The translations under genes were made by a program, and so were the position numbers. 32,000 bases of DNA from Sinorhizobium meliloti (GTDB taxonomy: Bacteria; Pseudomonadota; Alphaproteobacteria; Rhizobiales; Rhizobiaceae), in NCBI RefSeq assembly GCF_017876815.1, contig NZ_JAGIOS010000003.1:690001-722000 (forward strand). Direction: 5' to 3'. Of the stretch, positions 204-30,549 are shown piece after piece (the stretch's first letter is position 1; the number at the start of each line of letters is the position of its first letter). The notes below the pieces were generated by a model that was not told the DNA's origin, did not search any database, and was given only the letters and a program-made list of their open reading frames with translations.

Positions 204-204
204 T

Positions 205-9344: not shown

Positions 9345-9346
9345 AG

Positions 9347-10351: not shown

Positions 10352-10387
10352 GGTGTTGCTCCAATTGCTGAAATTCCGTTTGCAAAG

Positions 10388-11801: not shown

Positions 11802-11815
11802 TTGATCAGGAACAA
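11802..11815 (-). promoter_or_regulatory. Near-consensus FNR/FixK-type box TTGATCAGGAACAA
   Basis: Matches TTGAT-N4-ATCAA at 9 of 10 positions. The centre is about 191 nt upstream of the arcA ATG. It shares the TTGATCAGGA half with the box at 18458. Confidence 0.45.
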
Positions 11816-11910
11816 TTCTCCCGAAAATGTAACTTCGCCGTGCGATCAACTGCTCGCATGCACATTCGCGCCAAAGCAGCCCCAACATTACGGCGGTTTT
11901 TTTGTCGTTC

Positions 11911-11924
11911 TTGACCACGATCAA
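11911..11924. promoter_or_regulatory. FNR/FixK-type anaerobox TTGACCACGATCAA
   Basis: Perfect TTGA-N6-TCAA palindrome. The centre is about 70 nt upstream of ATG 11988 (plus strand) and about 300 nt upstream of arcA (minus strand). It is flanked by the direct repeat TTGTCGTTC (11902-11910 and 11929-11937). Confidence 0.6.
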
Positions 11925-11987
11925 CGACTTGTCGTTCGAGACTAACTAAAAATGGGTTTGCGCCAATTGCAGCGAAGGAATCAGAAA

Positions 11988-12245
11988 ATGAGCACGATTC
12001 CAATCATCCGGGCGATGATGGTAGCCTTCTGTTTATTCCTGGGCGCCGCCGTGCCAGCGGCTGCAGACGAGTATTATGAAGGCATCGACATCAACCAACG
12101 CCAAATCGACGGAAAAAGACAGCCCATTAATACTTACCTACTGAAGCGTAGGGCCGCCGCCCAGAAACCGCCTCCATCAACTACGGGCTCCGTGCCAAAG
12201 CCGGCCCCAGCAGCGCGCGCACCGACAGCCACCGTTCGCCCGTAA
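11988..12245 (+). CDS. Small exported protein, Pro/Ala-rich C-terminus (hypothetical)
   Basis: Inside ORF 11952..12245. The internal ATG 11988 gives MSTIPIIRAMMVAFCLFLGAAVPAAA-DEYYEG, a plausible Sec signal peptide. The FixK-type box is at a suitable distance upstream. Confidence 0.55.
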   Translation: MSTIPIIRAMMVAFCLFLGAAVPAAADEYYEGIDINQRQIDGKRQPINTYLLKRRAAAQKPPPSTTGSVPKPAPAARAPTATVRP

Positions 12246-12465
12246 CCTGGTGCAGATTGCAGAGAGCCCGCCACCGCGGATCAGGTCTGACGCTGCAATC
12301 GCGGACCGGGCTCGCATAGCCCGATGTCTCGCCGCTCCATCTGTCAGGAAAGAAAGATGAGGGGGTGCGCTTCGGCGCGGCGCATTCGAAGCCGAGATCG
12401 CGGCCGTATTGACGTAAGCACGATCTTGATAATCGCGAAAGGCCCGGCCCCTGGGAGGCGGAAAG

Positions 12466-13863
12466 ATGATGAGAGGGACGACCCTTGCACTTGCGGGCGC
12501 AATGACGCTCATGCTGTCGATGCAAGTCAGCGGCTCACTTGCACAAGAACCTACGAAAGCTGCAACCGGTACCGTGTCAACCCCGGAGCCGTTGACTGAC
12601 GACGAACTGGAGGTCCTGGTGGCGCGGATCGCGCTTTACCCGGACGAGTTGGTTGCGCTGATTTCAGCCGTGTCGCTATACCCCTTACAGATCGTTGAGG
12701 CGGAGCGGTTTCTTGAGAACCACAAAAAGAAGCCAGACCTCAAGCCGAAGGAAAGCTGGGATGGCAGCGTAATTTCGCTGCTGAACTATCCCGACGTCGT
12801 CAAGATGATGAGTGACGACCTTGAATGGACGCAGGCCTTCGGTCAGGCAGTCGCCTATCAGCAGAAGGACGTGCTGATTGCGATCCAGCAGTTGCGCGAC
12901 GAAGCGGTAGCCAAGGACATTATCAAGTCGGACGACAAGATGATGTTGGTCCAGGAGGGCGACAACATCATCATCCAGTCGGCGAATCCGGAGACTATCT
13001 ACGTGCCGCAATATCCTCCGGAAATGCTGTACGAGCCGGATTACGCGCCGGTGCCCATCGACTACTATGACACGCCCTATCCCTCCTATTACTACCCAGG
13101 CGCAGCCTTTTTTGCCGGGGCGGTCACCGGCGCGGTCTTCGGCGCTATCGTCGACTGGGACGACTGGGGGGTCTGGGGCGGAGACTGGGGCGGCGACATT
13201 GATGTGGACTGCGACAATTGCTTCAACAACGTCGATATAGACGGCAAGGTCAAGTGGAACGACATCGATTGGAAAAATGTCGACCGCAGCAAGCTGACGT
13301 TCGATCGCGACCAGCTCCAGAAGTTGGACAGGACGAACTTAAAAAACAATATCAAGGCGAACGGCGAAAACAACATCCGCAACCGCGCTACCGAGATCAA
13401 TCGCGATCGGTTAAAGTCGGGACCGGGCGGTGGCGCCAGCCAAATAAAGGACGTGCGCAAGAGCACGCTCGAGGGCCTGAAGGCGCAGCCGAGACGAGAC
13501 GCCGCGGCACGTCCCACCGCAAAGCCCGGCGGCGGACAGGCGGTGGCAAAGGCGAAATCCAGCGGCGCGAAAGCTGGTGTCAACCGCCCCAAGGGCAAGA
13601 AGTCCTCGGCCAATCGGCCAGCAGGCAAGAAGAAGATGGCTTCCAAGGCGCAGAACAGGCCGAAAAAACCGTCCGGGCTGGGCAACGTCAACTCCGGCCG
13701 GCGGGAGGTGTCTGCCTCACGGCGCGGCGGCCACAGCATGGGCGGCGGGCAACGAGGCGGCGGGCGGCCGCAGATGAGTCGCGGCGGCGGCCGGCCGCCG
13801 ATGGGAGGGGCCGGACGTGGTGGTGGACGCGGGGGTGGCGGACGCGGCGGAGGCAGGCGCTGA
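12466..13863 (+). CDS. DUF3300 domain-containing exported protein with an RGG-rich C-terminal tail
   Basis: GGAGG 7 nt upstream of ATG 12466 and a signal peptide MMRGTTLALAGAMTLMLSMQVSGSLAQ. The DUF3300 hallmark is LVARIALYPDELVALISAVSLYPLQIVEAERF. The middle is Tyr/Trp/Asp-rich and includes a hydrophobic stretch AAFFAGAVTGAVFGAIV. The last ~150 aa are basic and low-complexity. Confidence 0.85.
   Translation: MMRGTTLALAGAMTLMLSMQVSGSLAQEPTKAATGTVSTPEPLTDDELEVLVARIALYPDELVALISAVSLYPLQIVEAERFLENHKKKPDLKPKESWDGSVISLLNYPDVVKMMSDDLEWTQAFGQAVAYQQKDVLIAIQQLRDEAVAKDIIKSDDKMMLVQEGDNIIIQSANPETIYVPQYPPEMLYEPDYAPVPIDYYDTPYPSYYYPGAAFFAGAVTGAVFGAIVDWDDWGVWGGDWGGDIDVDCDNCFNNVDIDGKVKWNDIDWKNVDRSKLTFDRDQLQKLDRTNLKNNIKANGENNIRNRATEINRDRLKSGPGGGASQIKDVRKSTLEGLKAQPRRDAAARPTAKPGGGQAVAKAKSSGAKAGVNRPKGKKSSANRPAGKKKMASKAQNRPKKPSGLGNVNSGRREVSASRRGGHSMGGGQRGGGRPQMSRGGGRPPMGGAGRGGGRGGGGRGGGRR
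13720..13860 (+). repeat. GGC/CGG-rich low-complexity coding repeat (RGG/GGR tail)
   Basis: Encodes RRGGHSMGGGQRGGGRPQMSRGGGRPPMGGAGRGGGRGGGGRGGGRR. The same DNA produces long spurious ORFs in other frames (13092..13901 minus, 13218.. plus). Confidence 0.7.
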
Positions 13864-13883
13864 ACGGTTACGGGAGACAGACC

Positions 13884-14834
13884 ATGATCAAGTTCTTGCA
13901 CACACTTCTCCTGGGATCGGCGATCTCACTTGCGCCCGTCGTTGGCCCGATGGACGCATCTCTCGCTCAGACACAGGATTTGGCAGACCTGGACGATTAT
14001 GCTGCCGCGGAAGAGCCCCCGATGTTCGACGACCCGTCGAAGGCGGTGGAAGCATTTAAGTCGGTCCTTGCCGCCAACGACTTCGACGGGCTTGCACGAC
14101 TTCTGGGGCTGAACGCCGCAAAACTGAAGACGGGCGAAGGAGCGATGGAGACCTTCAATCTGGTTCGCGAGGGTGCGGCCCGCAACGTTGTCGTGCGCGA
14201 TCTTGACGGTCGCAAGATCATCGTCATCGGCGACCGGCTCTGGCCACTGCCGTTTCCTATCGTCAAGGACGAGGCCGGCAAATGGGCTTTCGATACCTAT
14301 GTCGGGCTCGAGGAGATCGTCAACCGACGCGTTGGCGAGAACGAATTGGAGGCGATCGAGACGGCGCGCGCCTATATCGAAGCACAGAAGGACTATGTAT
14401 CGCAGGACCGCGATGGGGACGGAGTTTTCGAATACGCACAGAAGCTGATCAGCAGCCCAGGCCAGACGGATGGGCTTTACTGGCCGGCAGATCAGGGGAA
14501 TGGCGAAAGCCCGGTCGGTGAGGCCATCAGCGAGGCGGCGCTAGAGAAGGCAAGGACTGGAGAGGGCTATTTCGGATACCGCTTCCGCGTCCTGACCTCT
14601 CAAGGTGAGAATATCGCCGGCGGCAAGTACGATTACACCATCAACGGCAACATGATCGCCGGCTTCGCGCTGATCACCTGGCCGGTCAAGTATGCCGAAA
14701 CGGGGGTCAAGACCTTCGTTATCAATCAACAGGGCATCGTCTATGAACGAGACCTTGGTCCGAGCACCGAGGAAATCGTGCCATTCATAGATCGTTTCGA
14801 TCCGGATGAAAAATGGAGCGTGGTTACCGACTAG
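13884..14834 (+). CDS. DUF2950 domain-containing exported protein
   Basis: Internal ATG 13884 of ORF 13218..14834 (MIKFLHTLLLGSAISLAPVVGPMDASLAQ, a signal peptide), 20 nt after the DUF3300 stop. The C-terminal pattern GYFGYRFRVLTSQGENIAGGKYDYTINGNMIAGFALITWPVKYAETGVKTFVINQQGIVYERDLG is as I remember the DUF2950 family. Confidence 0.85.
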   Translation: MIKFLHTLLLGSAISLAPVVGPMDASLAQTQDLADLDDYAAAEEPPMFDDPSKAVEAFKSVLAANDFDGLARLLGLNAAKLKTGEGAMETFNLVREGAARNVVVRDLDGRKIIVIGDRLWPLPFPIVKDEAGKWAFDTYVGLEEIVNRRVGENELEAIETARAYIEAQKDYVSQDRDGDGVFEYAQKLISSPGQTDGLYWPADQGNGESPVGEAISEAALEKARTGEGYFGYRFRVLTSQGENIAGGKYDYTINGNMIAGFALITWPVKYAETGVKTFVINQQGIVYERDLGPSTEEIVPFIDRFDPDEKWSVVTD

Positions 14835-15048: not shown

Positions 15049-15555
15049 ATGAAGCTAACCCCAAAAACACGGATCGTAGCTGCGACGGCAGTGAGTCTTC
15101 TCTGCAGTGGAACGGTGGTTCAGGCACAGGACATGAAGAAGTACGGCACCGCGGCAGGCTGGGATATCATTGTGAGAGGGGACATGGGCCCCGGCTGCCT
15201 CATCGCGAAGAAGTTGGGTGATGATATGCAGGTTCTGATGGGCATAGACGAGACGACCGGCAGACGCGGCTACATGGCACTCTACACAAAGTTGGCGGCA
15301 AACGTTGGCAGTGGTGAGAAACGCTCCGTAATATTCGACGTTGACGGCCAGAAATTCAGCGGGGAGGCAACCGGTCAGCAGCTGGAGGGATTCGATGGAG
15401 CTTACGTTTGGGTCAACAATCCAGACTTCATCTACGATCTTGCCAAGATGAAGACGCTGACGATCACGCCGGAAGGGCGCAAGCCTTTTGCGCTAAGCCT
15501 TGCCGGAACCGACGCTGCAATGCAGGCCATGCGCGCCTGCCAGGAGGCTAACTAA
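15049..15555 (+). CDS. Exported hypothetical protein (168 aa, two Cys)
   Basis: Strong SD AAGGAGGA upstream of ATG 15049 and a signal peptide MKLTPKTRIVAATAVSLLCSGTVVQAQ. Non-repetitive globular composition; no family assigned with confidence. Confidence 0.8.
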   Translation: MKLTPKTRIVAATAVSLLCSGTVVQAQDMKKYGTAAGWDIIVRGDMGPGCLIAKKLGDDMQVLMGIDETTGRRGYMALYTKLAANVGSGEKRSVIFDVDGQKFSGEATGQQLEGFDGAYVWVNNPDFIYDLAKMKTLTITPEGRKPFALSLAGTDAAMQAMRACQEAN

Positions 15556-15578
15556 GTAGGTATCGCCTGCGCGCACAC

Positions 15579-15592
15579 TTGACTGCGATCAA
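15579..15592. promoter_or_regulatory. FNR/FixK-type anaerobox TTGACTGCGATCAA
   Basis: Perfect TTGA-N6-TCAA palindrome, starting 23 nt after the stop of the 15049..15555 gene. It sits at the start of a 397-bp region with no credible ORF, and its centre is about 367 nt upstream of the antiporter ATG 15953. Confidence 0.5.
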
Positions 15593-15952
15593 TGCGAGAG
15601 GATCCATGGAGTGGCATGCTCTGCACGCGGTAGAGCAATGCATGCGCGCGGTTTGCGCCGTCGCCTGGAGGGGAGCATGGCACCGATACAGGTTGGTCCC
15701 GGCCGTGCGTGTCGGTGTCGAGTGCTCTAAGCGACGTTGACGCAGGCTGTTGCCGCATCGAGCGTTGTCGATCTCAGATACGCTGCTGAATTGGTACCTT
15801 CGTTCACCTTGATCGGCGATCGAAACAGTTAAAGGAGCCGTCTCCAATATCAGATTCCAGTTTCGCCATGCTTCTCCGCGCCACACCGGCAACGCAGGTC
15901 AGCGCTCATCATTACTAACTTCCTGGGGCCCGGCGCTCGAAAGGTTGAGCAA

Positions 15953-17296
15953 ATGTCAGCACCGTCAAGTGGCAAAAGCCTGGGTCTGGCCGCCTGTACC
16001 GCCATCGTCGTCGGTAACATGGTTGGCTCCGGCTTCTACCTCTCGCCGGCGGCAGTTGCTCCCTACGGCAATCTCGCTATCGTGATTTGGATCGTGATGG
16101 GAGCGGGTGCGATCTGTCTCGGGCTGACGTTCGCACGGCTCGCAAAGCTCTCTCCGGCAGTCGGCGGGCCTTATGCATATACGCGCCTTGCCTATGGAGA
16201 CTTTCCGGGCTTTCTTATCGCTTGGGGATATTGGATTTCCATCTGGGCGTCCCTGCCCGTTATCGCCGTGGCGTTCGCCGGCGTGGTCATCGATTTTTTT
16301 CCGTTCCTCCGCGGGCGCGGAACGGCGACGCTGCTCACGTTGGGCGTGATCTGGCTTGTCGTGCTCGTCAACTTACGCGGCGTCCACGCGGCCGGGCTCT
16401 TTTCGGAAATCACCACCTACGCTAAGATGATCCCGTTCGGGGCCGTCGCGCTGCTGGGCCTGTTTTACATCGACTTCTCTCACTTTGCCGACTTCAATCC
16501 AAGCGGCCAGCCGCTCCTTCAGGCGAGCGCTGCGTTGGCGCCGCTTACCATGTTCGCCTATTTGGGGCTTGAATCTGCCACGGTGCCCGCTGGCGATGTG
16601 CGCGACGCCGAACGTACGATCCCGCGTTCAACGGTGCTTGGAATCGCCATTGCTGTAACGCTGTACGTTCTGGGCACCATTGTCGTTATGGGGTTGGTGC
16701 CGAGAGAGGAGCTCGTCCACTCGGTGGCGCCCTTCTCCGAGGCAGCAAGGAGAATGTGGGGACCGGCCGGTGAGCTAGCGATTTCTCTCGCAGTTGTCCT
16801 GTCATCAATCGGAGCGCTGAACGGCTGGACATTGCTGATGGGGCAGGTGCCAATGGCGGCGGCGCGAGACGGATTGTTTCCACCTCTGTTCAGCCGGCTC
16901 TCGGTGCGAAATGTGCCCGCCACGGGGATTGTCGTTTCGGCGACTCTGGCGACGATTCTCGTGCTCGTTCAGGCAGCCGGTTCCGAGGGCTTCTCATCCA
17001 TTTATCGTCTATTCGTCGGCTTAAGCACAATGACCGCCGTTATACCTTATGCGTTCTGCGCTCTTGCCAGCAGTCTCGTCTCCGCACGGGTTAGCGGAGG
17101 GACTGTAATACCGCGTGTAACCCTTATCGAGCTTGTTGGTTTCGCTTTTGCAATTTTCACGCTTTACGGCTGTGGTGCGGAGCCTGTTCTCTACGGGCTA
17201 TTGCTGCTGTTGCTGAGCATCCCCGTTTACATATGGCAGCGACGGCGGAGCTTCGTGCCGGGTGATGATCCTAGCCGGGGCCAGACGCCTGATTGA
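15953..17296 (+). CDS. APC-superfamily basic amino acid/polyamine antiporter (APA family, AdiC/ArcD-like)
   Basis: 447 aa and about 12 TM. Motifs shared with AdiC-type exchangers include VVGNMVGSGFYLSPA, GGPYAYTR, LGLESATVPAGDVRDAERTIPRS and ARDGLFPPLFSR. Confidence 0.9.
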   Translation: MSAPSSGKSLGLAACTAIVVGNMVGSGFYLSPAAVAPYGNLAIVIWIVMGAGAICLGLTFARLAKLSPAVGGPYAYTRLAYGDFPGFLIAWGYWISIWASLPVIAVAFAGVVIDFFPFLRGRGTATLLTLGVIWLVVLVNLRGVHAAGLFSEITTYAKMIPFGAVALLGLFYIDFSHFADFNPSGQPLLQASAALAPLTMFAYLGLESATVPAGDVRDAERTIPRSTVLGIAIAVTLYVLGTIVVMGLVPREELVHSVAPFSEAARRMWGPAGELAISLAVVLSSIGALNGWTLLMGQVPMAAARDGLFPPLFSRLSVRNVPATGIVVSATLATILVLVQAAGSEGFSSIYRLFVGLSTMTAVIPYAFCALASSLVSARVSGGTVIPRVTLIELVGFAFAIFTLYGCGAEPVLYGLLLLLLSIPVYIWQRRRSFVPGDDPSRGQTPD

Positions 17297-17414
17297 TTGC
17301 GATAACTTAGAGCGGATGGGGGTGGAAAACCGCGTGCACCTTTCCTCATCCCGCTCCGGGCAGGCAGCAGCGCCTGGTACCGGTGTGTGGTTCGTTCCGT
17401 ACCTCGAGGGCGAT

Positions 17415-18341
17415 ATGTTCAACGAGCAGACCTTCCTTCGGGCTTCCATCGCCGCCACCGTTGTCGTCGCGGCATTTGGAATTATCCTGGGACTTCTGTC
17501 CGGGTCATTCTCCATCACATTTGACGGCGTCTACTCGCTCGCCGATGCCGGAATGACTGTCTTGGCGCTTTGGGTTTCCAGGCTGATTGCGGTAGCGGCA
17601 ACGGGCAATGCGTTGTCCGGCCGTATGCGGGAACGTTTCACGATGGGGTTCTGGCACCTCGAGCCGATCGTCTTGCTTCTCAACGGTACATTGCTGATGG
17701 CCATCGCCGTTTATGCGTTGATCAATGCGCTGACCAGCGTTTTGAAAGGGGGCCATCAGCTCCAGTTCGGCTTCGCCATTGCCTATGCTGCAGTGACCGT
17801 GTTCATTTGTACGATGATGGCGGTGATCGGTGCGCGAGCTAATCGCGGGCTTCGATCGAATTTTATCGCGCTTGATGTCAAGGCCTGGATCATGTCGGGG
17901 GGCATCGCGTCGGCGCTGCTGGTTGCTTTCATAATCGGCCATGCGGTCCAGAAAACGGCATTGCATTGGATGACCTCATACGTCGATCCCGTGGTGTTGG
18001 CTTTTGTCTGCATCGTCATCATCCCCCTGCCGATCGGTACGGTTAAGTCGGCTCTTGCCGATATCCTGCTGATCACCCCAAGCGAGCTCAGGGCTCGGGT
18101 GGAGCGCATCGCCGACGAAACGGTGCGGAAGCAGGGCTTTCTTTCTTACCGGGCCTACGTCGCCAGGGTTGGGCGCGCCAAGCAGATAGAGCTTCATTTC
18201 ATCGTGCCCAGCAACCTTCCTCCTCAACCGGTAGAGTCGTGGGACCGAATTCGAGATGAGATTGGGATTGCTATTGGCGATGAAGGCCACAATCGCTGGT
18301 TGACAATCGCCTTTACCGCAGACGAGAGGTGGGCAGAGTGA
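17415..18341 (+). CDS. Cation diffusion facilitator (CDF) family transporter
   Basis: Inside ORF 17262..18341. Start taken at ATG 17415 (MFNEQTFLRASIAATVVVAAFGIILGLLSGSFSITFDGVYSLADAG). Six TM segments plus a C-terminal cytoplasmic domain (RAYVARVGRAKQIELHFIVP). An alternative start is at 17316. Confidence 0.85.
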   Translation: MFNEQTFLRASIAATVVVAAFGIILGLLSGSFSITFDGVYSLADAGMTVLALWVSRLIAVAATGNALSGRMRERFTMGFWHLEPIVLLLNGTLLMAIAVYALINALTSVLKGGHQLQFGFAIAYAAVTVFICTMMAVIGARANRGLRSNFIALDVKAWIMSGGIASALLVAFIIGHAVQKTALHWMTSYVDPVVLAFVCIVIIPLPIGTVKSALADILLITPSELRARVERIADETVRKQGFLSYRAYVARVGRAKQIELHFIVPSNLPPQPVESWDRIRDEIGIAIGDEGHNRWLTIAFTADERWAE

Positions 18342-18457: not shown

Positions 18458-18471
18458 TTGATCAGGATCAA
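18458..18471 (+). promoter_or_regulatory. Consensus FNR/FixK-type anaerobox TTGATCAGGATCAA
   Basis: 10/10 match to TTGAT-N4-ATCAA. The centre is about 85 nt upstream of ATG 18550. A class II (-41.5) promoter would give a leader of about 44 nt. Confidence 0.65.
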
Positions 18472-18549
18472 CGACGCGCCGGCGCCGCGCGTGTACGACT
18501 TACAACGAAAGCTGAGAATTCGCCGCCGCGTCCGCAGGAGCCTGGGACC

Positions 18550-20820
18550 ATGGAGTTCTACAAGGCATTCCCCATCGCTGTCATCGATGAAGATTACGAG
18601 GGTAAAAACGCGGCCGGGCGGGGCATGCGCAGCCTCGCAGAGGCGATTGAAAAGGAAGGTTATCGGGTCGTTGGAGGGCTCACCTATGAGGATGCACGCC
18701 GCCTCGTGAACGTCTTCAACACCGAGTCCTGCTGGCTGATTTCAGTCGACGGGACGGAATCAAGTACGACGCGATGGGAGATTTTGGCCGAGCTGCTCGC
18801 CGCGAAACGCTCCCGGAACAACCTGCTGCCAATCTTTCTGTTTGGCGACGATACAACGGCGGAAATGGTGCCGGCGCCCGTGCTGCGCCACGCCAATGCC
18901 TTTATGCGTCTTTTCGAGGATTCTCCGGAATTCATGGCGCGCGCGATCGTGCGCGCCGCGCAGAATTATCTTGAGAGGCTTCCGCCTCCAATGTTCAAGG
19001 CGTTGATGGAATACACGCTTCACGGCGCCTATTCCTGGCACACGCCAGGGCACGGAGGCGGGGTGGCGTTTCGCAAGAGCCCGGTTGGCCAGCTCTTTTA
19101 TTCGTTTTTCGGAGAGAACACACTGAGGTCGGACATTTCTGTGTCCGTCGGCAGCGTTGGTTCGCTCCTCGATCATGTTGGGCCGATTGGCGAGGGTGAG
19201 CGCAATGCCGCTCGTATATTTGGTGCGGATGAGACGCTGTTCGTTGTCGGCGGCACATCGACCGCCAATAAGATCGTATGGCACGGCATGGTCACTCGGA
19301 ACGACCTCGTCCTCTGCGACCGAAACTGCCATAAGTCTATCCTGCACTCGCTGATCATGACGGGTGCAACGCCGATTTACCTGACGCCCTCACGCAACGG
19401 CCTCGGCATCATCGGGCCGATTGCGAAGGAGCAATTTACCCCAGAGGCAATTGCGCACAAGATCGCCGCCAGTCCGTTTGCCAGTGAGACGAACGGTAAA
19501 GTGCGCCTGATGGTAGTGACAAACTCCACCTATGATGGGCTCTGCTACAATGTAGATGAAATCAAATCGGCTCTCGGCGATGCGGTGGAGGTACTGCATT
19601 TCGACGAGGCCTGGTTTGCTTACGCCAATTTTCACGAATTCTACGATGGTTATCACGCGATCTCTTCAACGAAGCCCGCGCGCTCGCAAGACGCCATAAC
19701 ATTCGCAACCCAGTCGACGCATAAGCTGCTGGCCGCCTTCTCTCAAGCTTCAATGCTTCATGTGCAGCATGCCGTGGCGAAGCAACTCGACATCACACGC
19801 TTCAACGAAGCGTTCATGATGCACACATCGACATCGCCGCAATATGGGATCATCGCCTCGTGCGACGTGGCTGCTGCCATGATGGAGCAGCCCGCCGGGC
19901 GGGCGCTGGTACAGGAGACCATTGACGAGGCCATGAGTTTCCGTCGAGCCGTCAACGCCGTGCGGACACAGATGCAGGATTCCTGGTGGTTCGAAGTCTG
20001 GGAGCCCCCCATCGCGGATCGGGCACCGAGCGACGCCAGGTCGGATTGGCTTCTTAAGCCCAACGACGCGTGGCATGGTTTCGAAGACCTGGCTGAGAAT
20101 CACGTGATGGTTGACCCGATCAAGGTAACGATCCTTTCGCCCGGACTCAATGCGGGCGGAGCGATGCTGGAGCATGGTATTCCGGCTGCAGTCGTCACGA
20201 AGTTCCTTTCTTCTCGCCGGATCGAAATCGAGAAAACGGGTCTCTACTCTTTCCTGGTGCTCTTCTCCATGGGGATCACACGGGGCAAGTGGAGCACCCT
20301 GATCACCGAGCTCTTGAACTTCAAAGACCTCTATGATGCCAATGCGCCTCTTTCACGCGCCCTTCCCGCCCTCGCGGCAGCCCATCCGGACGTCTACCGT
20401 GCAATGGGGCTCAGAGATCTTTGCGAGAAAATTCACGACGTGTACCGCAGCGACGACGTGCCGAATGCCCAGCGCGAGATGTACACCGTGCTGCCCGAAA
20501 TGGCACTGCGCCCGGCGGACGCCTACAACCGCTTGGTCAAGGGGTGCGTCGAAAGCATCGATATCGACGAATTGATCGGCCGAACACTCGCAGTCATGAT
20601 TGTACCCTATCCTCCGGGGATCCCGCTCATCATGCCTGGCGAACGGATCACCGCCGCCACAAGATCGATCCAGGACTATCTCGTCTACGCCCGGAGTTTC
20701 GACAGGAAATTCCCGGGATTTGAGACGGACATCCACGGGCTCCGTTTCGTCGCTAACCCGAGTGGACGGAGATATCTCGTGGATTGCATCGTCGAGGAGG
20801 GGCAGGATGATACCGCGTGA
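18550..20820 (+). CDS. Wing-domain fold-type I PLP-dependent Orn/Lys/Arg decarboxylase (CadA/LdcC/AdiA-like, lysine or arginine type)
   Basis: 756 aa. It aligns by eye along its length with E. coli CadA and AdiA: FRKSPVGQLFYSFFGENTLRSDISVSVGSVGSLLDH, GGTSTANKIV, DRNCHKS, the PLP-Lys motif QSTHKLLAAFSQASMLHV, SMGITRGKWSTL and PYPPGIPLIMPGE...FPGFETDIHGL. Confidence 0.95.
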   Translation: MEFYKAFPIAVIDEDYEGKNAAGRGMRSLAEAIEKEGYRVVGGLTYEDARRLVNVFNTESCWLISVDGTESSTTRWEILAELLAAKRSRNNLLPIFLFGDDTTAEMVPAPVLRHANAFMRLFEDSPEFMARAIVRAAQNYLERLPPPMFKALMEYTLHGAYSWHTPGHGGGVAFRKSPVGQLFYSFFGENTLRSDISVSVGSVGSLLDHVGPIGEGERNAARIFGADETLFVVGGTSTANKIVWHGMVTRNDLVLCDRNCHKSILHSLIMTGATPIYLTPSRNGLGIIGPIAKEQFTPEAIAHKIAASPFASETNGKVRLMVVTNSTYDGLCYNVDEIKSALGDAVEVLHFDEAWFAYANFHEFYDGYHAISSTKPARSQDAITFATQSTHKLLAAFSQASMLHVQHAVAKQLDITRFNEAFMMHTSTSPQYGIIASCDVAAAMMEQPAGRALVQETIDEAMSFRRAVNAVRTQMQDSWWFEVWEPPIADRAPSDARSDWLLKPNDAWHGFEDLAENHVMVDPIKVTILSPGLNAGGAMLEHGIPAAVVTKFLSSRRIEIEKTGLYSFLVLFSMGITRGKWSTLITELLNFKDLYDANAPLSRALPALAAAHPDVYRAMGLRDLCEKIHDVYRSDDVPNAQREMYTVLPEMALRPADAYNRLVKGCVESIDIDELIGRTLAVMIVPYPPGIPLIMPGERITAATRSIQDYLVYARSFDRKFPGFETDIHGLRFVANPSGRRYLVDCIVEEGQDDTA

Positions 20821-23170: not shown

Positions 23171-23197
23171 TCGCCTCTTCCGAGGGAGGATCAGGTC

Positions 23198-24556
23198 ATG
23201 ACTGAACATTCGCTCAACGTTGCCATGGAAGCTTCGTCGAAGAAGAAAATGAACCTGGTCCAGCTCACCTTTATCGTTGCGGTGAACATGATGGGCTCGG
23301 GAATAATAATGCTGCCGGCGAACATGGCGCAGGTCGGTGCCATTTCACTTCTGTCCTGGCTGGTGACCGCGGTCGGCTCGATGGCGATCGCTTACGGATT
23401 TGCACAAGCCGGTCTATTCAACCAGCGTCCCGGAGGGATGTCGGCTTATGCGGAGGATGCCTACGGTAAACCGGGCTATTTCCTCGTTTTCTTACTCTAC
23501 TTTCTTTCGCTCGCTGTCGGCAATGTCGCGATCGGCATTTCGGCCGTCGGCTATCTCGCCGGGTTCTTCCCATGGCTGACGTCCACGCCGATTGCGACTT
23601 GCGTGAGCCTGATCATCCTCCTGTGGCTTACGACTGTAGCTAACTTTGGCGGGCCGCGCGTCACGGGCCGTATCGGTTCAATCACGGTATGGGGAGTGAT
23701 CCTCCCCGTAGGGCTGCTCTGTATTATCGGTTGGGCATGGTTCAGTTCGGAGGTTTTCGCGGCTGCCTGGAATCCCAATGGACTGACCCTCGTTCAAGGC
23801 ATGGGATCGAGCATCTCGCTGACGCTCTGGGCGTTTCTGGGGATGGAATCGGCTGCACAGAACTCCGATGCGGTGGAAAATCCCAAGCGGGACGTTCCTC
23901 TTGCCTGCCTGTTCGGGACGCTCGGCGCCGCTATTATCTACATTCTCTCGACCACAGTCATTCAGGGGATCGTGCCGAACGCTGAGCTTGCCGCGTCGAC
24001 GGGACCGTTCGCGCTTGCCTATGCCACGATGTTCAACCCCGCCATCGGATCAGTCGTCATGGCGCTGGCTGTTCTCGCCTGCGTCGGCTCGCTACTCGGC
24101 TGGCAGTTCACCATCGCGCAAACGGCGCGGGCCGCCGCGGACGAGCGCATGTTTCCGTCCCTTTTTTCGCGGGTGAACGAGATGGGTGCGCCCGTAACCG
24201 GGATGATCGTCATGGGCGTTGTTCAGTCTCTGCTGGCGCTCATGACGATTTCACCCACGCTCAACGAGCAGTTTGCAGCGCTCGTCAATCTGGCGGTCGT
24301 CACCAACGTGCTTCCCTACATCATCTCCCTTTCCGCACTCTTCGTCATGATGAGGGCGGCTGGCGTTTCAGAAAGCAAGTTCCGCTTGAATTCTTCGATC
24401 GCGATCGTAGGCATGCTCTATAGCGTCTTTGCGATTTATGCGTCCGGAAAGGATGCCGTGCTGGGCGGTATGCTCGTGACCGGAATTGCCTTCATCATTT
24501 ACGGCCTTATCGCGCCTCGCTTCACCCCAAGACCGGGAATTGTGGGGACAGCGTGA
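23198..24556 (+). CDS. potE: Putrescine:ornithine antiporter (PotE-like, APA family)
   Basis: GGGAGGA SD upstream. Extended similarity to E. coli PotE as I recall it: VQLTFIVAVNMMGSGIIMLPANMAQVGAISLLSWLVTAVGSMA, VANFGGPRVTGRIGSITVWGVILPV, WAFLGMESAAQNSDAVENPKRDVP, CVGSLLGWQFTIAQ and LVNLAVVTNVLPYI. Confidence 0.9.
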   Translation: MTEHSLNVAMEASSKKKMNLVQLTFIVAVNMMGSGIIMLPANMAQVGAISLLSWLVTAVGSMAIAYGFAQAGLFNQRPGGMSAYAEDAYGKPGYFLVFLLYFLSLAVGNVAIGISAVGYLAGFFPWLTSTPIATCVSLIILLWLTTVANFGGPRVTGRIGSITVWGVILPVGLLCIIGWAWFSSEVFAAAWNPNGLTLVQGMGSSISLTLWAFLGMESAAQNSDAVENPKRDVPLACLFGTLGAAIIYILSTTVIQGIVPNAELAASTGPFALAYATMFNPAIGSVVMALAVLACVGSLLGWQFTIAQTARAAADERMFPSLFSRVNEMGAPVTGMIVMGVVQSLLALMTISPTLNEQFAALVNLAVVTNVLPYIISLSALFVMMRAAGVSESKFRLNSSIAIVGMLYSVFAIYASGKDAVLGGMLVTGIAFIIYGLIAPRFTPRPGIVGTA

Positions 24557-24585
24557 GGTCAAGAGAAGCGTTGGGAGGATGCAAC

Positions 24586-25527
24586 ATGCAAGCCGCACCG
24601 GGCAAAGGACGTCAAGCGGGACGATGGATAGTCAGATTTGGGCTGACGCTAGGAGCAATGACCGTCAGCATGTGGGCGAGCGCAGAAGCACAGACGCTTG
24701 ATCGCGTCCGCAGCAGCAGCACCGTCAAGCTGGGCTACGATGCGAACGCGCGCCCATTCTCGTTCAAGGCCGAAGGGGAAAGCGCGACCGGCTATGCCGT
24801 CAGCCTGTGCATGGAGGTGGTCGAGGAACTGAAACGTGAACTTGGGATCGCCGATCTTGCGGTCGAGTGGATTGAGCTCACCAGGGAGGCTGCCGACCAC
24901 GCCATACGACAAGGTTCGGCCGATCTCTTCTGTGGTGCGTCACCCGTGACCTTGACGCGTCGAAAAGAGGTTTCGTTCTCGCTACCGATCTTTCCGAGCG
25001 GGACGGGTGCGGTACTGAATGCGAGCGCACCCCTTGCGCTGCGCGAGGTTCTGACGCAGGGTCGCCCCTCTGACCGGCCCATTTGGCGGGGATCCCCTGC
25101 AAGAACTGTACTCAATCAGAAGACATTTTCCCCGATCGCAGGTACTACCAGTGAGGATTGGCTTGCGGAGCGGATAAAGACATTTCAGCTTTCAGCGACC
25201 ATCGCTGCTGTGGAGAACTATGATCAGGGAATCGCCAATATTCTGAACGGCGAGTCCGACGTACTCTTCGGCGACCTGCCGCTCTTGCTCGACGCCGCCG
25301 CGCGCGGCGAAAATTCCGGCGATCTCATCGTACTGAAGCGCCATTTCACCTACGAACCGCTTGCGCTTGTGCTGGCGCGCAACGACGAGGATTTTCGAAT
25401 CGTCGTTGACCGGGCGTTGAGCCGCACCTACCGATCGGAAGATTTCCCGGCATTCTTCAGCGAGTGGTTCGGACCTCCCGACGATACGATCGTGACCTTC
25501 TTCCGGCAAACGACATTGCCTGAGTGA
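24586..25527 (+). CDS. Family-3 (amino-acid type) periplasmic substrate-binding protein, orphan
   Basis: ORF 24553..25527. ATG 24586 follows GGAGG by 7 nt, and the signal peptide ends ...SMWASAEA-Q. SBP_bac_3-like motifs KLGYDANARPFSF and DLFCGASPVTLTRRKEVSFSLPIF. No ABC permease or ATPase is adjacent. Confidence 0.85.
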   Translation: MQAAPGKGRQAGRWIVRFGLTLGAMTVSMWASAEAQTLDRVRSSSTVKLGYDANARPFSFKAEGESATGYAVSLCMEVVEELKRELGIADLAVEWIELTREAADHAIRQGSADLFCGASPVTLTRRKEVSFSLPIFPSGTGAVLNASAPLALREVLTQGRPSDRPIWRGSPARTVLNQKTFSPIAGTTSEDWLAERIKTFQLSATIAAVENYDQGIANILNGESDVLFGDLPLLLDAAARGENSGDLIVLKRHFTYEPLALVLARNDEDFRIVVDRALSRTYRSEDFPAFFSEWFGPPDDTIVTFFRQTTLPE

Positions 25528-25735: not shown

Positions 25736-26881
25736 ATGCCCACTTTCGAGGTGAAAAGGTCCACCAAGCAGTCGCGATCTGCAATCGAAGCGGTCTTAAG
25801 GGAGCTTCGACGATCTCCACTTCTGGCGTTGATCTTCTTCGTACCTGTGGTCATTCTCCTGGAGCGGATGGCTCCGAAGGCTCATACGTTATTGTTTTTC
25901 GTGGCGATCGCAGCGATCGTACCGCTCGCTGCGCTCTTGAGCCGCGCGACGGAATCGGTGGCGGCAAAGACCGGCGATGCGGTCGGTGGCCTGCTCAATG
26001 CAACGCTCGGTAACCTGACGGAGCTCATTATTACGCTCGCCGCTCTGCAGGCCGGGCAGTATCTTCTCGTCAAAGCCTCGATCGCGGGCGCAATTGTCAC
26101 CAATAGCCTTTTCATGTTTGGAGGCGCTTTTCTCATTGGCGGCCTGAACCATCATCTGCAGGAATTCAACAGGGTGAATGCACGTTTTCAGGCGAGCCTC
26201 CTGTTCCTTGCGACGATTGCGATTCTGGTACCCTCGCTCACGAGCGGCTTGGATCGCACCCCGGCAGCGGAATTTTCCCAGCAGTTGAGCCTAGGATTGG
26301 CGATCCTGCTCATAGCCGTCTACGGACTTGGCATGGTGTTTTCCCTGAAGACGCACAAGGAACTGTTTGCAAGCGTCGGTCAGGCCGAGGCGGGAGAGAA
26401 GCCCTGGCCGCTTTCGATCGGGATTGTCGTTTTGATTGTCGTCACGCTCCTCGTCGCAATGGTCAGCGAGATTTTCGTCGGGTCAGTGCAAGCTGCCGCG
26501 CAACATCTAGGACTGACACCGGCCTTCGTTGGTTTCATAGTCATCGCCCTGGTTGGCGGAGCTGCGGAAATGACCACGGCGTTCTCAGCGGCGCGCGCAA
26601 ATCGCCTGGACCTCAGCGTTGGCATCGCGCTGGGCAGCGCTGCGCAGATCGCTCTGTTCGTTGCGCCGGTACTCGTCCTTGTCAGCTACTTCATTGGGCC
26701 CCAGCCGATGTCGCTCGAATTCTGGCCCGGCGCGGTGGCAATGATGCTGGTGGCGACCATGGCGGCGACCCTTCTGTCCAATGGAGGGCACGCAGCGTGG
26801 TATGCGGGCGTCATGGCACTGGCGGTTTACGCCATATTTGCGTTGACGCTGTTCCTCTTGCCCCCAGGAGTGACTCAATGA
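25736..26881 (+). CDS. Calcium/proton antiporter (CaCA/CAX, ChaA-like)
   Basis: Internal ATG 25736 of ORF 25610..26881, with GGAGGA 8 nt upstream. The paired alpha-repeat motifs are GLLNATLGNLTELIITLAAL and ALVGGAAEMTTAFSAA; about 11 TM. Confidence 0.9.
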   Translation: MPTFEVKRSTKQSRSAIEAVLRELRRSPLLALIFFVPVVILLERMAPKAHTLLFFVAIAAIVPLAALLSRATESVAAKTGDAVGGLLNATLGNLTELIITLAALQAGQYLLVKASIAGAIVTNSLFMFGGAFLIGGLNHHLQEFNRVNARFQASLLFLATIAILVPSLTSGLDRTPAAEFSQQLSLGLAILLIAVYGLGMVFSLKTHKELFASVGQAEAGEKPWPLSIGIVVLIVVTLLVAMVSEIFVGSVQAAAQHLGLTPAFVGFIVIALVGGAAEMTTAFSAARANRLDLSVGIALGSAAQIALFVAPVLVLVSYFIGPQPMSLEFWPGAVAMMLVATMAATLLSNGGHAAWYAGVMALAVYAIFALTLFLLPPGVTQ

Positions 26882-27555
26882 GCGAGAAAGTGCCCGGTAA
26901 TGGCGGCTCGAAGCATTTGTTCTACGGCGTCCTCAATCCTGTTGACCGCTCCAACGAGGTGCTCTTTGGATTGATCATGGTCATGACGTTCACGAATTCG
27001 CTGAGCACCACGGAAGCAGGACGAGCGGATGTGCGGTCAATGCTGGTTGGAGCTGTCGGCTGCAATCTGGCGTGGGGTATCATTGACGCAGTCATGTACT
27101 TCATGAGCTCGATGGCTGAGCGCAAGCTTTCGGAGCGAACGGTTCACCGTGTGCGGACAGCTGATGACGTTAAAGCGGCTCGCGGTATCGTGGCAGAGGC
27201 ACTGCCGGGCATCATTCTGCCAGCGCTTTCGTCCGAAGACCTGGAACGGATACGCCGGCACCTGGCCAGCCTCCCTGACGATGAGGTGCGCGCGCGACCC
27301 ACCACGCGTGATGTCATCAGCGCGCTAGGTGTCTTTCTGTTGGTCTTCCTTTGCACATTTCCGGTCGTTTTTCCGTTCATCGTCATGACAAACGCCCTGG
27401 CCGCAGTGAAGGTCTCCAACGCGATAGCCACTGCTCTGTTGTTTCTGGCCGGGTATACTCTGGGACGTCACTCCGGCAACCCAGTGGGTCTGGCGCTTGC
27501 GATGGTCGCGATTGGTTTGATTCTGGTGGCCTTAGCCTCGGCCCTCGGGGGATGA
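26878..27555 (+). CDS. VIT1/CCC1 (DUF125) family Fe/Mn transporter-like membrane protein
   Basis: Internal ATG 26878 of ORF 26797..27555 forms an ATGA overlap with the cax stop. NEVLFGLIMVMTF... followed by a cytoplasmic helical segment and the C-terminal TM bundle VFLLVFLCTFPVVFPFIV ... ALLFLAGYTLG ... LAMVAIGLILVALASALGG. Confidence 0.8.
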   Translation: MSEKVPGNGGSKHLFYGVLNPVDRSNEVLFGLIMVMTFTNSLSTTEAGRADVRSMLVGAVGCNLAWGIIDAVMYFMSSMAERKLSERTVHRVRTADDVKAARGIVAEALPGIILPALSSEDLERIRRHLASLPDDEVRARPTTRDVISALGVFLLVFLCTFPVVFPFIVMTNALAAVKVSNAIATALLFLAGYTLGRHSGNPVGLALAMVAIGLILVALASALGG

Positions 27556-27709: not shown

Positions 27710-28564
27710 TCAGAAAAGGTTTGGCACCGTGCGGCGGCGCGTATCTCCTTCGAAATCAGCCGGCCGCTTCTGACGCTTGCCAAGGTCGGGTTCCACGAAC
27801 TTCACCCGTTCGTAGGGAATTGAGGAAAGAATATGAGCGATACAATTCACGCGCGCCTGCTTTTTATTATCCGATGGGACGATCCACCATGGCGCATCGT
27901 CGGTGTCTGTCATCCTGATCATCTCGTCATAGGCTCGAGTGTAGTCCCACCAGCGCCGATAGGATTCGACATCCATCGGTGATAGCTTCCATTGGCGCAG
28001 CGGATCATTGATGCGTTGCCGGAATCGGCGGTCCTGTTCCTCCTCGCTTACATCGAGGAAATATTTAAGCAGCACTATTCCGCTTTCAATCATCGCTGCC
28101 TCGAACCGGGGAGCGATCTCCAGAAAGCGCTTTGCCTTCTTCTCCGAGCAGAAGCCCATTACGCGCTCGACGCCGGGTCTGTTGTACCAGGATCGGTCGA
28201 AGATCACGACTTCGCCGGCCGCCGGAAGCTGCTGTATATAGCGTTGCATGTAAATCTGCGTCTTCTCACGATCCGTCGGCGCAGGTAGGGCCACGACACG
28301 AAAGACGCGTGGGCTGACTCGCTCAGTGATCCGTTTTATCACGCCGCCCTTGCCGGCCGCGTCTCGTCCCTCGAAGACGATGACGATCCGAGCCCCTGTC
28401 TGCTTCACCCAAGCCTGCAAATGAGCAATCTCCTCCTGCAATCGGGCCAGCTCTTTTGCATAGTTTCCAACGGACCGCTTTTCGGAGCCCTTGGTCGCAG
28501 CGGATTTCCTGTCCTCCCCCTTCCAGTGATTGTTCTTTTTTCTGTCGTCGGTGTGCTTGTCCAT
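27710..28564 (-). CDS. ppk2: Polyphosphate kinase 2 (PPK2) family protein
   Basis: GAGGAGGGG SD upstream. Motifs IVIVFEGRDAAGKGGVIKRI (Walker A), IFDRSWYNR and RQWKLSPMD...DTDDAPWWIVPSDNKKQARVN are the PPK2 hallmarks. 284 aa, single-domain type. Confidence 0.95.
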   Translation of the reverse strand: MDKHTDDRKKNNHWKGEDRKSAATKGSEKRSVGNYAKELARLQEEIAHLQAWVKQTGARIVIVFEGRDAAGKGGVIKRITERVSPRVFRVVALPAPTDREKTQIYMQRYIQQLPAAGEVVIFDRSWYNRPGVERVMGFCSEKKAKRFLEIAPRFEAAMIESGIVLLKYFLDVSEEEQDRRFRQRINDPLRQWKLSPMDVESYRRWWDYTRAYDEMIRMTDTDDAPWWIVPSDNKKQARVNCIAHILSSIPYERVKFVEPDLGKRQKRPADFEGDTRRRTVPNLF

Positions 28565-28674
28565 TGGCCCCTCCTCTATTGCTTAGGGGTTGCTGTCCCT
28601 ATCGGCACTAAATCTGCGGCTGAGTACCCGACAGGTATTGACGTCTGCGCTGGGCGCGGCGCAGCCGACCCTCC

Positions 28675-29904
28675 TCAATGGCCCTTGAAGACCAGCGTCT
28701 GGACCGGCAAGAGCAGGGCCTGAAGCCTGAGGATCATGGCGTGCACCAATCCCACCGCATCGACGACATGCAGAAATAGCCAGTGCGGTGTGCTGATGCC
28801 GGGCGCATGTAGTGCATCGTGATTGCTCGTGTACGCGTTGGCAATGCAACTGCTTCCAGGTGGTATGCCGCTGAACTGTCCCTCGTAGAGCGGCTCCAGA
28901 TAGGCAGTCAGCGTGCCAGGACTGGCAAGTTGCTGCGCGTCGACGAGCTGGTCGGTCGGACGAACTTGGCCGGCGGCGATGACGTCTTGCACCTCCGTCA
29001 CCACCATCGGGATGATGGTGAACGGCTTGCCGATGCAGGTCGCCTCGGCAATCATCCCGGCCTTCATCACCTGTGCCTCGATCTGGCCGAAGCCAGCGAT
29101 CAGGCCAATGCGGCGTTGCTCGGGAACCAGGATGCCGGCCGAGCGAATCATCGGATTGACGATATCTCCAGCTCGGAGCGCGAACTGCTGGACTACGCCG
29201 GCGGTTCCAGCCCGTACGATCGTCTTGTCGAGCTCCACCTGGGCTTGGGTCAGCGCCGCTTCAGCGCTCGCCTTCTGAGCCGGCAGGAGTGAGGCGATTT
29301 TCGTTTCCAAGGTCCGCTTGTTGGAGATCGACGCGGCACGCGCGCCATCGCGACCATCGACAGCGACCTGAAGCCGCTCGATTTCGCGCCTTGCGACGAT
29401 GTTAGGGTTGCGCTGGTTCAATTCGACCTGCGTCTCGAGTTCATTCAGCGCCTGGAGATAGTCGCCCTCGGCTTGGGCGATAAGGCCGTCGGCGGAGGCG
29501 AGTTCGCTCTGCGCAACAATTGCCTCTGCCTCGATCTCGGCGACGCGTCGGCGGGCGGTCTCAAGTGCTGCCCGTTGCTCGGAATCGTCGAGGCGGAAGA
29601 GGGGAGCACCGGCAGAAACCTTCTCGTTGAGGTCAACATAAACCTCTGCTACTCGCCCGGTTGATTCGGGCATGATCGTTACCGTGCGGAACACCGCGGT
29701 GACGTTGCTGGTAGATGGATGGAAGTAGAAGATCATTGTGATCAGTGAAATGGTTAGGATAAGGCAGGCCGTTATGCCGTATCGGAGCTCAAACCACATG
29801 GAATAGAGATTTATCTCACGGCCGACACGCTTGCCTTGGACATAGCGGCGGACGAGGTAGTCCGGAAAAATGGTGAGCAGCGAGCAGATCAGGAATTCCA
29901 GCAC
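28675..29904 (-). CDS. HlyD-family membrane-fusion-like protein (YiaV-like)
   Basis: ORF 28675..29937. N-terminal TM helices, a biotinyl-lipoyl-like hairpin TGRVAEVYVDLNEKVSAGAPLFRLD, a long coiled coil and the beta-barrel part IVRAGTAGVVQQFALRAGDIV. In-frame GTG 29904 sits 4 nt after the upstream gene's TGA and follows GGAGGGGG, so it is preferred over ATG 29937. Confidence 0.85.
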   Translation of the reverse strand: MLEFLICSLLTIFPDYLVRRYVQGKRVGREINLYSMWFELRYGITACLILTISLITMIFYFHPSTSNVTAVFRTVTIMPESTGRVAEVYVDLNEKVSAGAPLFRLDDSEQRAALETARRRVAEIEAEAIVAQSELASADGLIAQAEGDYLQALNELETQVELNQRNPNIVARREIERLQVAVDGRDGARAASISNKRTLETKIASLLPAQKASAEAALTQAQVELDKTIVRAGTAGVVQQFALRAGDIVNPMIRSAGILVPEQRRIGLIAGFGQIEAQVMKAGMIAEATCIGKPFTIIPMVVTEVQDVIAAGQVRPTDQLVDAQQLASPGTLTAYLEPLYEGQFSGIPPGSSCIANAYTSNHDALHAPGISTPHWLFLHVVDAVGLVHAMILRLQALLLPVQTLVFKGH

Positions 29905-29908
29905 AATT

Positions 29909-30397
29909 TCACCCCCTCCGTTCCGCCTTCTCGTCACCTGCCACGGGCTCTATCTCGAGCGGCACCCATTGTGGCGGGCCTGCGTGGGATTCGCTGGCTC
30001 GCGGGGGCATCGCCGCCGGCTGGGCACTCGTCCCGGGTTCGTCGGTTCCATCGTGGCGGTCGGCCATTTTCGCCAGCGAGCGAGCGATCGATTCGACTGG
30101 AGACGAGAAGTTCGGAAATTCGACCATGGCAAGTAGGAGAGCCGCAATCCAGAACAAGTGATTGTGGGTGAAGAGCGCGACCAGCGCCAAGACGCCGACG
30201 ATCTGCAACTGCACTTTGCTGGCGCCATGCGCCATGTGCTCGGGCAAAGCGTGCAGGCGCAGGTAAAGGATGCCGACCACAAAGACCATCAGCAAGACGA
30301 AGACGATCATCACGTTGAAAAGAACGTCGGTCTGACCCGGCGCGGTGATGAACGGCGGCAGATGGGCAACCGCAGCCGGATGCAAGGAATCTTCCAT
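29909..30397 (-). CDS. Small inner-membrane protein, DUF3302 (YiaW)-like, with a Pro/Ala/Glu-rich C-terminal extension
   Basis: ORF 29909..30418. ATG 30397 follows GGGGGAG by 7 nt. Two TM helices with the pattern LRLHALPEHMAHG...LVALFTHNHLFWIAALLLA resemble E. coli YiaW as I recall it (ILHDIP...SLFTLHVIWP). It lies immediately upstream of a YiaV-like gene, as in E. coli yiaWV. Confidence 0.65.
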   Translation of the reverse strand: MEDSLHPAAVAHLPPFITAPGQTDVLFNVMIVFVLLMVFVVGILYLRLHALPEHMAHGASKVQLQIVGVLALVALFTHNHLFWIAALLLAMVEFPNFSSPVESIARSLAKMADRHDGTDEPGTSAQPAAMPPRASESHAGPPQWVPLEIEPVAGDEKAERRG

Positions 30398-30535
30398 CTC
30401 TGCGCTCCCCCTTCCCATAAAGTGGCAGGAGCCGCTGGCTGCGGCAAAAATGCTTGAACCTAAGGCAAGTAGAGAAGGGGACTAATCACCTCAATTTCCT
30501 TAAGTCTAATATTACGCCAGAACGCGTCGGTGGCA

Positions 30536-30549
30536 TTGATCGTGGTCAA
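30536..30549 (-). promoter_or_regulatory. FNR/FixK-type anaerobox TTGATCGTGGTCAA
   Basis: Perfect TTGA-N6-TCAA (9/10 to TTGAT-N4-ATCAA). The centre is about 145 nt upstream of ATG 30397 on the minus strand and about 356 nt upstream of the AI-2E gene on the plus strand. Confidence 0.5.

Follow-up and report, generated by a model that had tools for sequence, protein, structure and literature searches.

The 32,000 nucleotides (nt) of Sinorhizobium meliloti DNA analysed here (contig NZ_JAGIOS010000003.1, positions 690,001 to 722,000; hereafter the window) contain four perfect copies and one near-perfect copy of the palindrome TTGA-N6-TCAA, and these five sites are very probably class II FixK activator sites of plasmid pSymA that switch on five transcription units under microoxia. 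We observe directly the boxes themselves, their position in intergenic DNA, their identity with published FixK boxes, their distance from mapped transcription start sites and their conservation. The five boxes and the oxygen-limitation regulon to which they belong were published for the reference strain, 1021, in 2006, so that the present result is a correct rediscovery of something already known.

The location of the window is clear from megablast of positions 10000-31000 against a plasmid collection, in which pSymA of S. meliloti RU11/001 and SM11 matched at 100% identity over the full length, while pSymA of strains 1021 and 2011 matched at ~96.5% identity in reverse orientation. In strain 1021 nomenclature, the stretch covers SMa0665 to SMa0697. 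The gene map used below combines Pfam and NCBIfam scans with annotation carried over from the colinear strain ml46, and NC_003037 served as the strain 1021 comparison sequence (locus L002), in which the box positions were verified.

The pattern TTGANNNNNNTCAA (TTGA-N6-TCAA) matches exactly at 11911-11924 (TTGACCACGATCAA), 15579-15592 (TTGACTGCGATCAA), 18458-18471 (TTGATCAGGATCAA) and 30536-30549 (TTGATCGTGGTCAA), and a copy with one mismatch lies at 11802-11815 (TTGATCAGGAACAA), exactly as an earlier note on this DNA had reported from its letters. The same note had reckoned with few chance matches, and dinucleotide-preserving shuffles bear this out, since they give 0.40 expected matches and never more than two, with 0 of 100 shuffles reaching four exact boxes. 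Sites with at most one mismatch are, as a class, barely above background (17 observed vs 9.6 expected), and of the 13 with exactly one mismatch, 10 are coding. What sets the copy at 11802 apart is the 10-base consensus TTGATnnnnATCAA (TTGAT-N4-ATCAA), to which it is the sole one-mismatch site with at most one mismatch, the remaining ones having two or three. The four exact boxes also stay within one mismatch of this consensus, and box 18458 fits it in all ten positions (10/10). Two further one-mismatch sites were considered as additional boxes and rejected as chance: the site at 6470 is downstream of both flanking genes, and the site at 30792 comes after the mapped start of SMa0665 and departs from the pattern in two bases in strain 1021.

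The placement of the boxes is as telling as their number. Only 3,867 of the 32,000 bases (12.1%) are intergenic on the colinear-strain gene map, and the four exact boxes as well as the copy at 11802 are all found in this fraction, in agreement with the claim that they lie in non-coding DNA upstream of operons; for the four exact boxes, the probability of such a placement is 2.1e-4. The exact boxes thus number four in 3.9 kilobases (kb) of intergenic DNA and none in ~28.1 kb of coding DNA, rather than occurring at equal density in both. A scan for sigma-70 consensus promoters and intrinsic terminators as operon limits was uninformative, with 6 promoter-like sites against 6.4 expected. None of the sigma-70 consensus promoters in the window coincides with any of the five boxes, which fits activator-dependent class II promoters, where the box stands in place of the -35 element.

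These counts bear on the most sceptical explanation, namely that the palindromes arose by chance or are left over from duplicated DNA, and have no regulatory role. It could appeal to a motif of only eight fixed bases, to one-mismatch copies that are common and mostly coding, and to the fact that the 14-mer of box 30536 is the reverse complement of that of box 11911. Against it stand the shuffles and the intergenic placement of every box (p = 2e-4), as well as an anchored comparison of the five box flanks, in which we found no extended similarity: the downstream flanks agree in 8-20 of 45 positions, where random comparisons average 11.6 with a 99th percentile of 19, and the upstream flanks in 3-9 of 30. 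These figures led us to reject a duplication of promoters within the window. The extension ATCAACGAC, which the earlier note had described as common to two boxes, is indeed present at 11911 and 18458, and it amounts to only 4 bases beyond the box. Taken together with the start sites and the conservation across genera described below, this leaves the chance or relic explanation a negligible probability.

The start sites come from a supplementary table of Schlueter et al. 2013 (PMC3616915), obtained with strain 1021 and pooled RNA of 16 conditions, including microoxia, and the distances given here are those between the mapped strain 1021 starts and the box centres in NC_003037. Four of the five boxes have published starts 40.5-42.5 nt from their centres, which is class II geometry and agrees with the prediction of starts about 41 nt from the box centres. 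The imperfect box at 11802-11815, on the minus strand and reading TTGTTCCTGATCAA towards arcA, is the promoter element of arcA1BC; in strain 1021, its centre is at 375514.5 and the start at 375556 (+), 41.5 nt away, with an untranslated region (UTR) of 152 nt and an equivalent at 11767 (-) in the window. A minor arcA1 start is recorded at 375551. The perfect box at 11911-11924 (+), which the list derived from Bobik et al. gives for arcA1 as well, is the promoter element of the small exported protein, DUF3300 and DUF2950 genes (SMa_ORF_11/SMa0690). Its strain 1021 centre at 375405.5 lies 40.5 nt from the start at 375365 (-), listed as SMa_TSS1023 for SMa_ORF_11, with a UTR of 30 nt and an equivalent at 11958 (+); the neighbouring start at 375366 (-) gives 39.5 nt. 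The longest open reading frame (ORF) of the small exported protein begins at 11952, upstream of this start-site equivalent, and the ATG at 11988 has AAGGA ahead of it. Since transcription begins downstream of the ATG at 11952, the actual start codon of the small protein is the one at 11988.

The perfect box at 15579-15592 (+) is the promoter element of an adiC-like antiporter mRNA with a long leader. It begins only 24 nt after the stop codon of the gene before it, with the transporter gene ~390 nt further on, and in strain 1021 (SMa0684) its centre at 371758.5 is 41.5 nt from the start at 371717 (-), which corresponds to 15627 (+) in the window. The perfect box at 18458-18471 (+) serves as promoter element of the operon of a decarboxylase, an ornithine decarboxylase (ODC) and potE; the corresponding SMa0682 values are a centre at 368758.5, a start at 368716 (-), a distance of 42.5 nt, a UTR of 43 nt and a window equivalent at 18507 (+). 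The first three listed transcript bases agree with the window at 11767 (-), 11958 and 18507, while position 15627 is G in the window vs A in strain 1021. Strain 1021 has further start sites for SMa0687 and for SMa0683, the CDF gene also has a mapped start of its own, and the operon picture is more complex than one box per operon. With a leader of ~344 nt on its transcript, box 15579 differs from a conventional promoter with a short leader.

Conservation provides an independent line of evidence. Each box keeps its eight half-site bases unchanged in S. meliloti ml46, strain 1021 and S. medicae, and in box 18458 only spacer bases vary, but S. meliloti and S. medicae are too close for this invariance to be strong evidence. 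The comparison with another genus is more informative. On plasmid pRL12 of Rhizobium leguminosarum Ta6k (locus L005), the homologous proteins are 69-86% identical and the gene order is rearranged, and exact boxes are found upstream of arcA (at 7637, with a second, one-mismatch box at 7673), upstream of the adiC homologue (at 2692) and upstream of the decarboxylase homologue (at 970, with the same CGAC extension). Between arcA and DUF3300, Sinorhizobium sp. K101 has an exact box (L003 4082) together with an imperfect one. The boxes are thus retained at orthologous promoters in another genus, and it is this conservation, together with the box-to-start geometry, that refutes the reading of the palindromes as chance matches or relics.

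The DUF3300-DUF2950 pair behaves differently. We surveyed it in 11 genomes outside S. meliloti and S. medicae and found an exact box no more than ~150 nt upstream in two (K101 and Ensifer sp. LCM 4579), a one-mismatch box in one (Rhizobium sp. Pop5) and none in the other eight (S. fredii NGR234, E. canadensis, Pararhizobium A13, R. gallicum, S. terangae, Mesorhizobium ZC-5, R. mongolense and Brucella cytisi). With a box in so few of the 11 genomes, membership of DUF3300-DUF2950 in the FixK regulon is a local recruitment rather than a family-wide trait.

In the literature, the boxes are credited to FixK. Table S4 of PMC3596328 lists "FixK boxes" on pSymA, attributed to Bobik et al. 2006 (J Bacteriol 188:4890; Bobik, Meilhoc & Batut), and gives TTGACCACGATCAA for SMa0690, identical to box 11911; TTGACTGCGATCAA for SMa0684, identical to box 15579; TTGATCGGGATCAA for SMa0682, which differs from box 18458 by one spacer base; TTGACCACGATCAA for SMa0667, the reverse complement of box 30536; and TTGATCGTGGTCAA and TTGTTCCTGATCAA for SMa0693 (arcA1), which are boxes 11911 and 11802 seen from the arcA side. 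Furthermore, arcA1BC, SMa0680 and SMa0682 are activated by FixJ (PMC13327599, citing Bobik 2006), the regulation of arcABC by FixK has been called experimentally confirmed (PMC3164228), and SMa0631-SMa0697, 37 kb in all, has been described as one co-regulated block with a FixK-like motif (PMC5596199). SMa0684 has been named adiC, and a transposon sequencing study scored arcABC and adiC as required in symbiosis (PMC7268258), a paper that also makes the acid-tolerance argument for these functions explicitly. It is from this literature that the FixJ/FixK and oxygen dependence is taken, and a low-oxygen regulon uniting the arc genes, the decarboxylase/antiporter genes, DUF3300/DUF2950 and the HlyD pair, as proposed in the earlier note, agrees with the published strain 1021 boxes.

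If these observations are put together, the reading with the best support is the FixLJ-FixK cascade, which is already known. Under microoxia, the haem sensor kinase FixL would autophosphorylate and phosphorylate FixJ, and phosphorylated FixJ would induce fixK. A FixK dimer would then bind each TTGA-N6-TCAA palindrome ~41.5 nt upstream of the start, where it would overlap the -35 region and recruit RNA polymerase. Five units would be switched on together: arcABC; the small exported protein with DUF3300 and DUF2950; the adiC-like antiporter with the CDF transporter; two decarboxylases of basic amino acids with potE; and the membrane protein with its HlyD-family partner. Judging by family functions, arginine could be taken up or exchanged, and the deiminase pathway would yield ATP without respiration, as well as ammonia; the decarboxylase/antiporter pairs might use up protons, which would be helpful in a microoxic, acidic symbiosome.

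Several points weigh against this proposal. The strain 1021 table maps no start site for the SMa0667 box, that is, the perfect box at 30536-30549 (-), presumed promoter element of the SMa0667-like/HlyD pair, and we infer both FixK binding at the boxes and the use of this one. The FixK dependence of SMa0667, SMa0684 and SMa0690 rests on a secondary table of boxes and not on expression values; our literature search found no electrophoretic mobility shift or chromatin immunoprecipitation evidence of direct FixK binding at the five boxes; and all supporting data come from strain 1021 and not from the window strain, whose boxes are identical save for one spacer base. In addition, palindromes of the TTGA-N6-TCAA type are recognised by many Crp/Fnr members, and several S. 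meliloti paralogues could do so. As to box 30536, it is located in a 501-nt divergent intergenic region, with its strain 1021 centre at 355382.5 and a window start predicted at ~30501 (-). A TAATAT hexamer lies on the minus strand 22-27 nt past the box and would sit at -13 to -8, the expected place of a -10 element, if the start were 41.5 nt from the box centre. The divergent AI-2E gene has its mapped start ~210 nt away from this box, which therefore probably does not serve that gene.

The breadth of recognition within the Crp/Fnr family leads to a specific alternative, in which another paralogue serves the boxes mainly or additionally and FixK would act only indirectly. The homologue of SMa0662, an orphan regulator, is the leading candidate, and NnrR and SMa1207 are others. 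A Crp-family gene with cNMP_binding and HTH_Crp_2 domains, homologous to SMa0662, is found in strain ml46 ~2.4 kb to the right of where the window ends (L001 34966-35601), strain 1021 has 14 Crp/Fnr genes, and SMa0662 is inside the 37-kb co-regulated region with its role undescribed (PMC5596199). On the other hand, published work puts both boxes and induction down to FixJ and FixK (PMC13327599, PMC3164228, PMC3596328), and the boxes depart by one base at most from the FixK consensus TTGAT-N4-ATCAA and do not follow the NnrR-type TTG-N8-CAAA (PMC5596199). We consider this alternative improbable. It may be mentioned that another exact box, the SMa0661 box, is found near the SMa0662 homologue (L001 36329). 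A bolder version would make the island a self-contained, transferable module for low oxygen and acid stress, with the SMa0662 homologue acting on the boxes, with or without FixK1/2, and the adiC leader acting as a low-oxygen regulatory RNA; the pRL12 copy in R. leguminosarum does suggest that the boxes travel with the island, but the idea as a whole is a long shot. Control by FixK through all five boxes is the reading that we retain.

The long leader of the adiC-like antiporter mRNA deserves some attention. From the start downstream of box 15579 it extends over ~344 nt (15627-15970), and the counterpart start in strain 1021 was filed as that of a trans-acting small RNA, 'SMa_sRNA_64', under the rule that such starts lie >300 nt from a start codon (PMC3616915). 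The filing thus follows from the distance to the next start codon, and the best reading of the 'SMa_sRNA_64' start is a FixK-dependent promoter that gives the adiC mRNA its long leader. We also considered whether this leader holds a structured RNA or riboswitch, and rejected the idea: an Rfam scan of the whole window had no match at the gathering score, one of 15500-16050 had none at E <= 1, and the fold of the leader (z = +0.40) is no better than that of shuffles. An arginine-rich upstream ORF of 30 codons occurs at 15643-15735, in a frame that is not kept in strain 1021. The leader also varies in length, given that an extra segment of 109 nt is found between 15814 and 15815 (NC_003037 371413-371521) in strains 1021, 2011 and ml46 and in 31 other pSymA records, and is missing from the window strain and from S. 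medicae. We considered this segment as a mobile repeat and rejected the idea; it is single-copy in each of the 34 pSymA records, its fold has z = -0.62, and it is only an insertion or deletion. There is a further insertion or deletion of 10 nt near 15692, and both leave the boxes untouched.

Some details of the boxes themselves may also be recorded. The tetranucleotide CGAC stands directly 3' of two boxes, at 11925-11928 and 18472-18475, which corresponds to about -34 to -31; it is common to the promoters of the small-protein and decarboxylase operons and is kept at K101 (L003 4096-4099) and in R. leguminosarum (L005 966-969, minus strand), while the other three boxes are followed directly by TGCC or TGCG. 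CGAC may reflect a preference in promoter context. In the imperfect arcA box, the half-site ..GGAACAA recurs nearly identically in the published SMa0625, SMa1176 and SMa1201 boxes (TTGATCTGGAACAA, TTGATCCGGAACAA; Table S4 of PMC3596328), and K101 and R. leguminosarum likewise retain an imperfect ..ACAA box beside arcA. Judging from these sequences, the imperfect box at arcA has been conserved as a 'weak' variant and has not decayed.

The unit assigned to box 30536 also requires a correction of names. The protein encoded at 29909-30397 had been labelled DUF3302, and the scans do not support this label: the match to PF11742 has E = 0.083 and 13.5 bits vs a gathering score of 32, and there is no BLASTP alignment with the genuine DUF3302 protein of Rhizobium sp. 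Pop5. The likeness to DUF3302-HlyD pairs is one of architecture only, with a small membrane protein followed by an HlyD-family adaptor. In Pop5 (L010 1826-2790), a genuine DUF3302-HlyD pair stands next to a small-protein/DUF3300/DUF2950 operon in divergent orientation, and a one-mismatch box (TTGATCGCTATCGA) lies between the two. The two uncharacterised units therefore co-occur in another genus.

The genes of the five units are arranged as follows. The arginine deiminase pathway unit (8370-11617, minus strand, with its start-site equivalent at 11767) comprises arcC (8370-9344), arcB (9347-10351) and arcA (10388-11617), identified by the Pfam families AA_kinase, OTCace and ADI, respectively, and by colinear-strain annotation. 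On the plus strand, the second unit (11988-14834, start-site equivalent 11958) encodes the small exported protein of 85 amino acids (aa) at 11988-12245, DUF3300 at 12466-13863 and DUF2950 at 13884-14834, the last two assigned by Pfam, and an exported protein of 168 aa follows at 15049-15555 (+). The third unit (15627-18341, +) consists of the leader, the adiC-like APC antiporter homologous to SMa0684 (15971-17296) and the CDF cation efflux transporter (17415-18341). The fourth (18507-25527, +, with 18507 as start-site equivalent) contains an Orn/Lys/Arg decarboxylase (18550-20820), the ornithine decarboxylase (20807-23170), the potE antiporter (23198-24556) and an SBP_bac_3 solute-binding protein (24586-25527), and its transcript may possibly extend into cax (25736-26881, +) and VIT1 (26878-27555, +). 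The fifth unit (28675-30397, -) is formed by the SMa0667-like two-helix membrane protein of 162 aa (29909-30397) and the HlyD-family adaptor (28675-29904), after which ppk2 follows on the same strand (27710-28564); SMa0667-SMa0669 has been predicted as an operon (PMC3616915). The AI-2E transporter gene runs from 30899 onward (+).

To the left of arcC, the window holds sugar ABC transporter and dgo-like genes (1-6454, mixed strands) and then a decayed stretch (6455-8369, mixed strands). Within the latter, we noted a potassium-channel-like Ion_trans_2 ORF of 144 aa at 6934-7368 (-), a short MIP/aquaporin fragment at 7215-7655 (-) and an ORF of 156 aa at 7691-8161 (-) that is called 'histidine kinase' elsewhere and whose own match is only a weak one to DUF2939. 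The ORFs of this stretch are probably gene remnants.

What these results mean depends on the point of view. Reading the sequence alone can recover a genuine regulon, and the start-site test could be answered positively from data that were already public. For the biology, little is added, given that both the boxes and the induction of this pSymA island in low oxygen and in symbiosis were already on record in 2006. The increments are small ones: the start of SMa_sRNA_64 is reread, the arcA, adiC and decarboxylase boxes are seen to be conserved in R. leguminosarum, and the DUF3300/DUF2950 box is found to be lineage-restricted, so that a low-oxygen setting does not hold for these two families in general.

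Among known systems, the closest is the FixLJ-FixK regulon of S. meliloti 1021, which has the same locus, the same genes and the same five 14-mers as the window, except for one spacer base in the SMa0682 box; only the strain differs, the window being of the SM11 or RU11/001 type, as do the insertions and deletions in the leader. FixK2 of Bradyrhizobium japonicum/diazoefficiens is under post-translational control of its own, which is not known for S. meliloti FixK. This FixK2 uses the same palindrome and the same class II position, with the axis between -41 and -40 (PMC3596328). It belongs to another organism and has another target set than the boxes of the window. In Pseudomonas aeruginosa, arcDABC is activated by ANR at TTGA-N6-TCAA when oxygen is limiting. 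The likeness lies in an arginine deiminase operon under a Crp/Fnr-type activator in both cases, but the window has no arcD, its adiC-like antiporter being in a separate unit, and ANR and Fnr detect oxygen themselves by means of an Fe-S cluster, while in the system of the window FixL senses it upstream. Regulators of the Fnr type have an N-terminal cysteine cluster that holds a [4Fe-4S] centre, and the window itself encodes no regulator gene. The Crp/Fnr paralogues of pSymA are without the N-terminal cysteine-rich region (PMC5596199), and of the regulators named in the earlier note (FixK, FnrN and Anr), FixK under FixLJ therefore stands, whereas FnrN and ANR are only analogies because the Fnr cysteine cluster is missing from these paralogues. 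R. leguminosarum, according to PMC7888657, relies on hFixL-FxkR-FixK plus FnrN, and it has exact boxes at its arcA, adiC and decarboxylase homologues as in the window, in a rearranged gene order.

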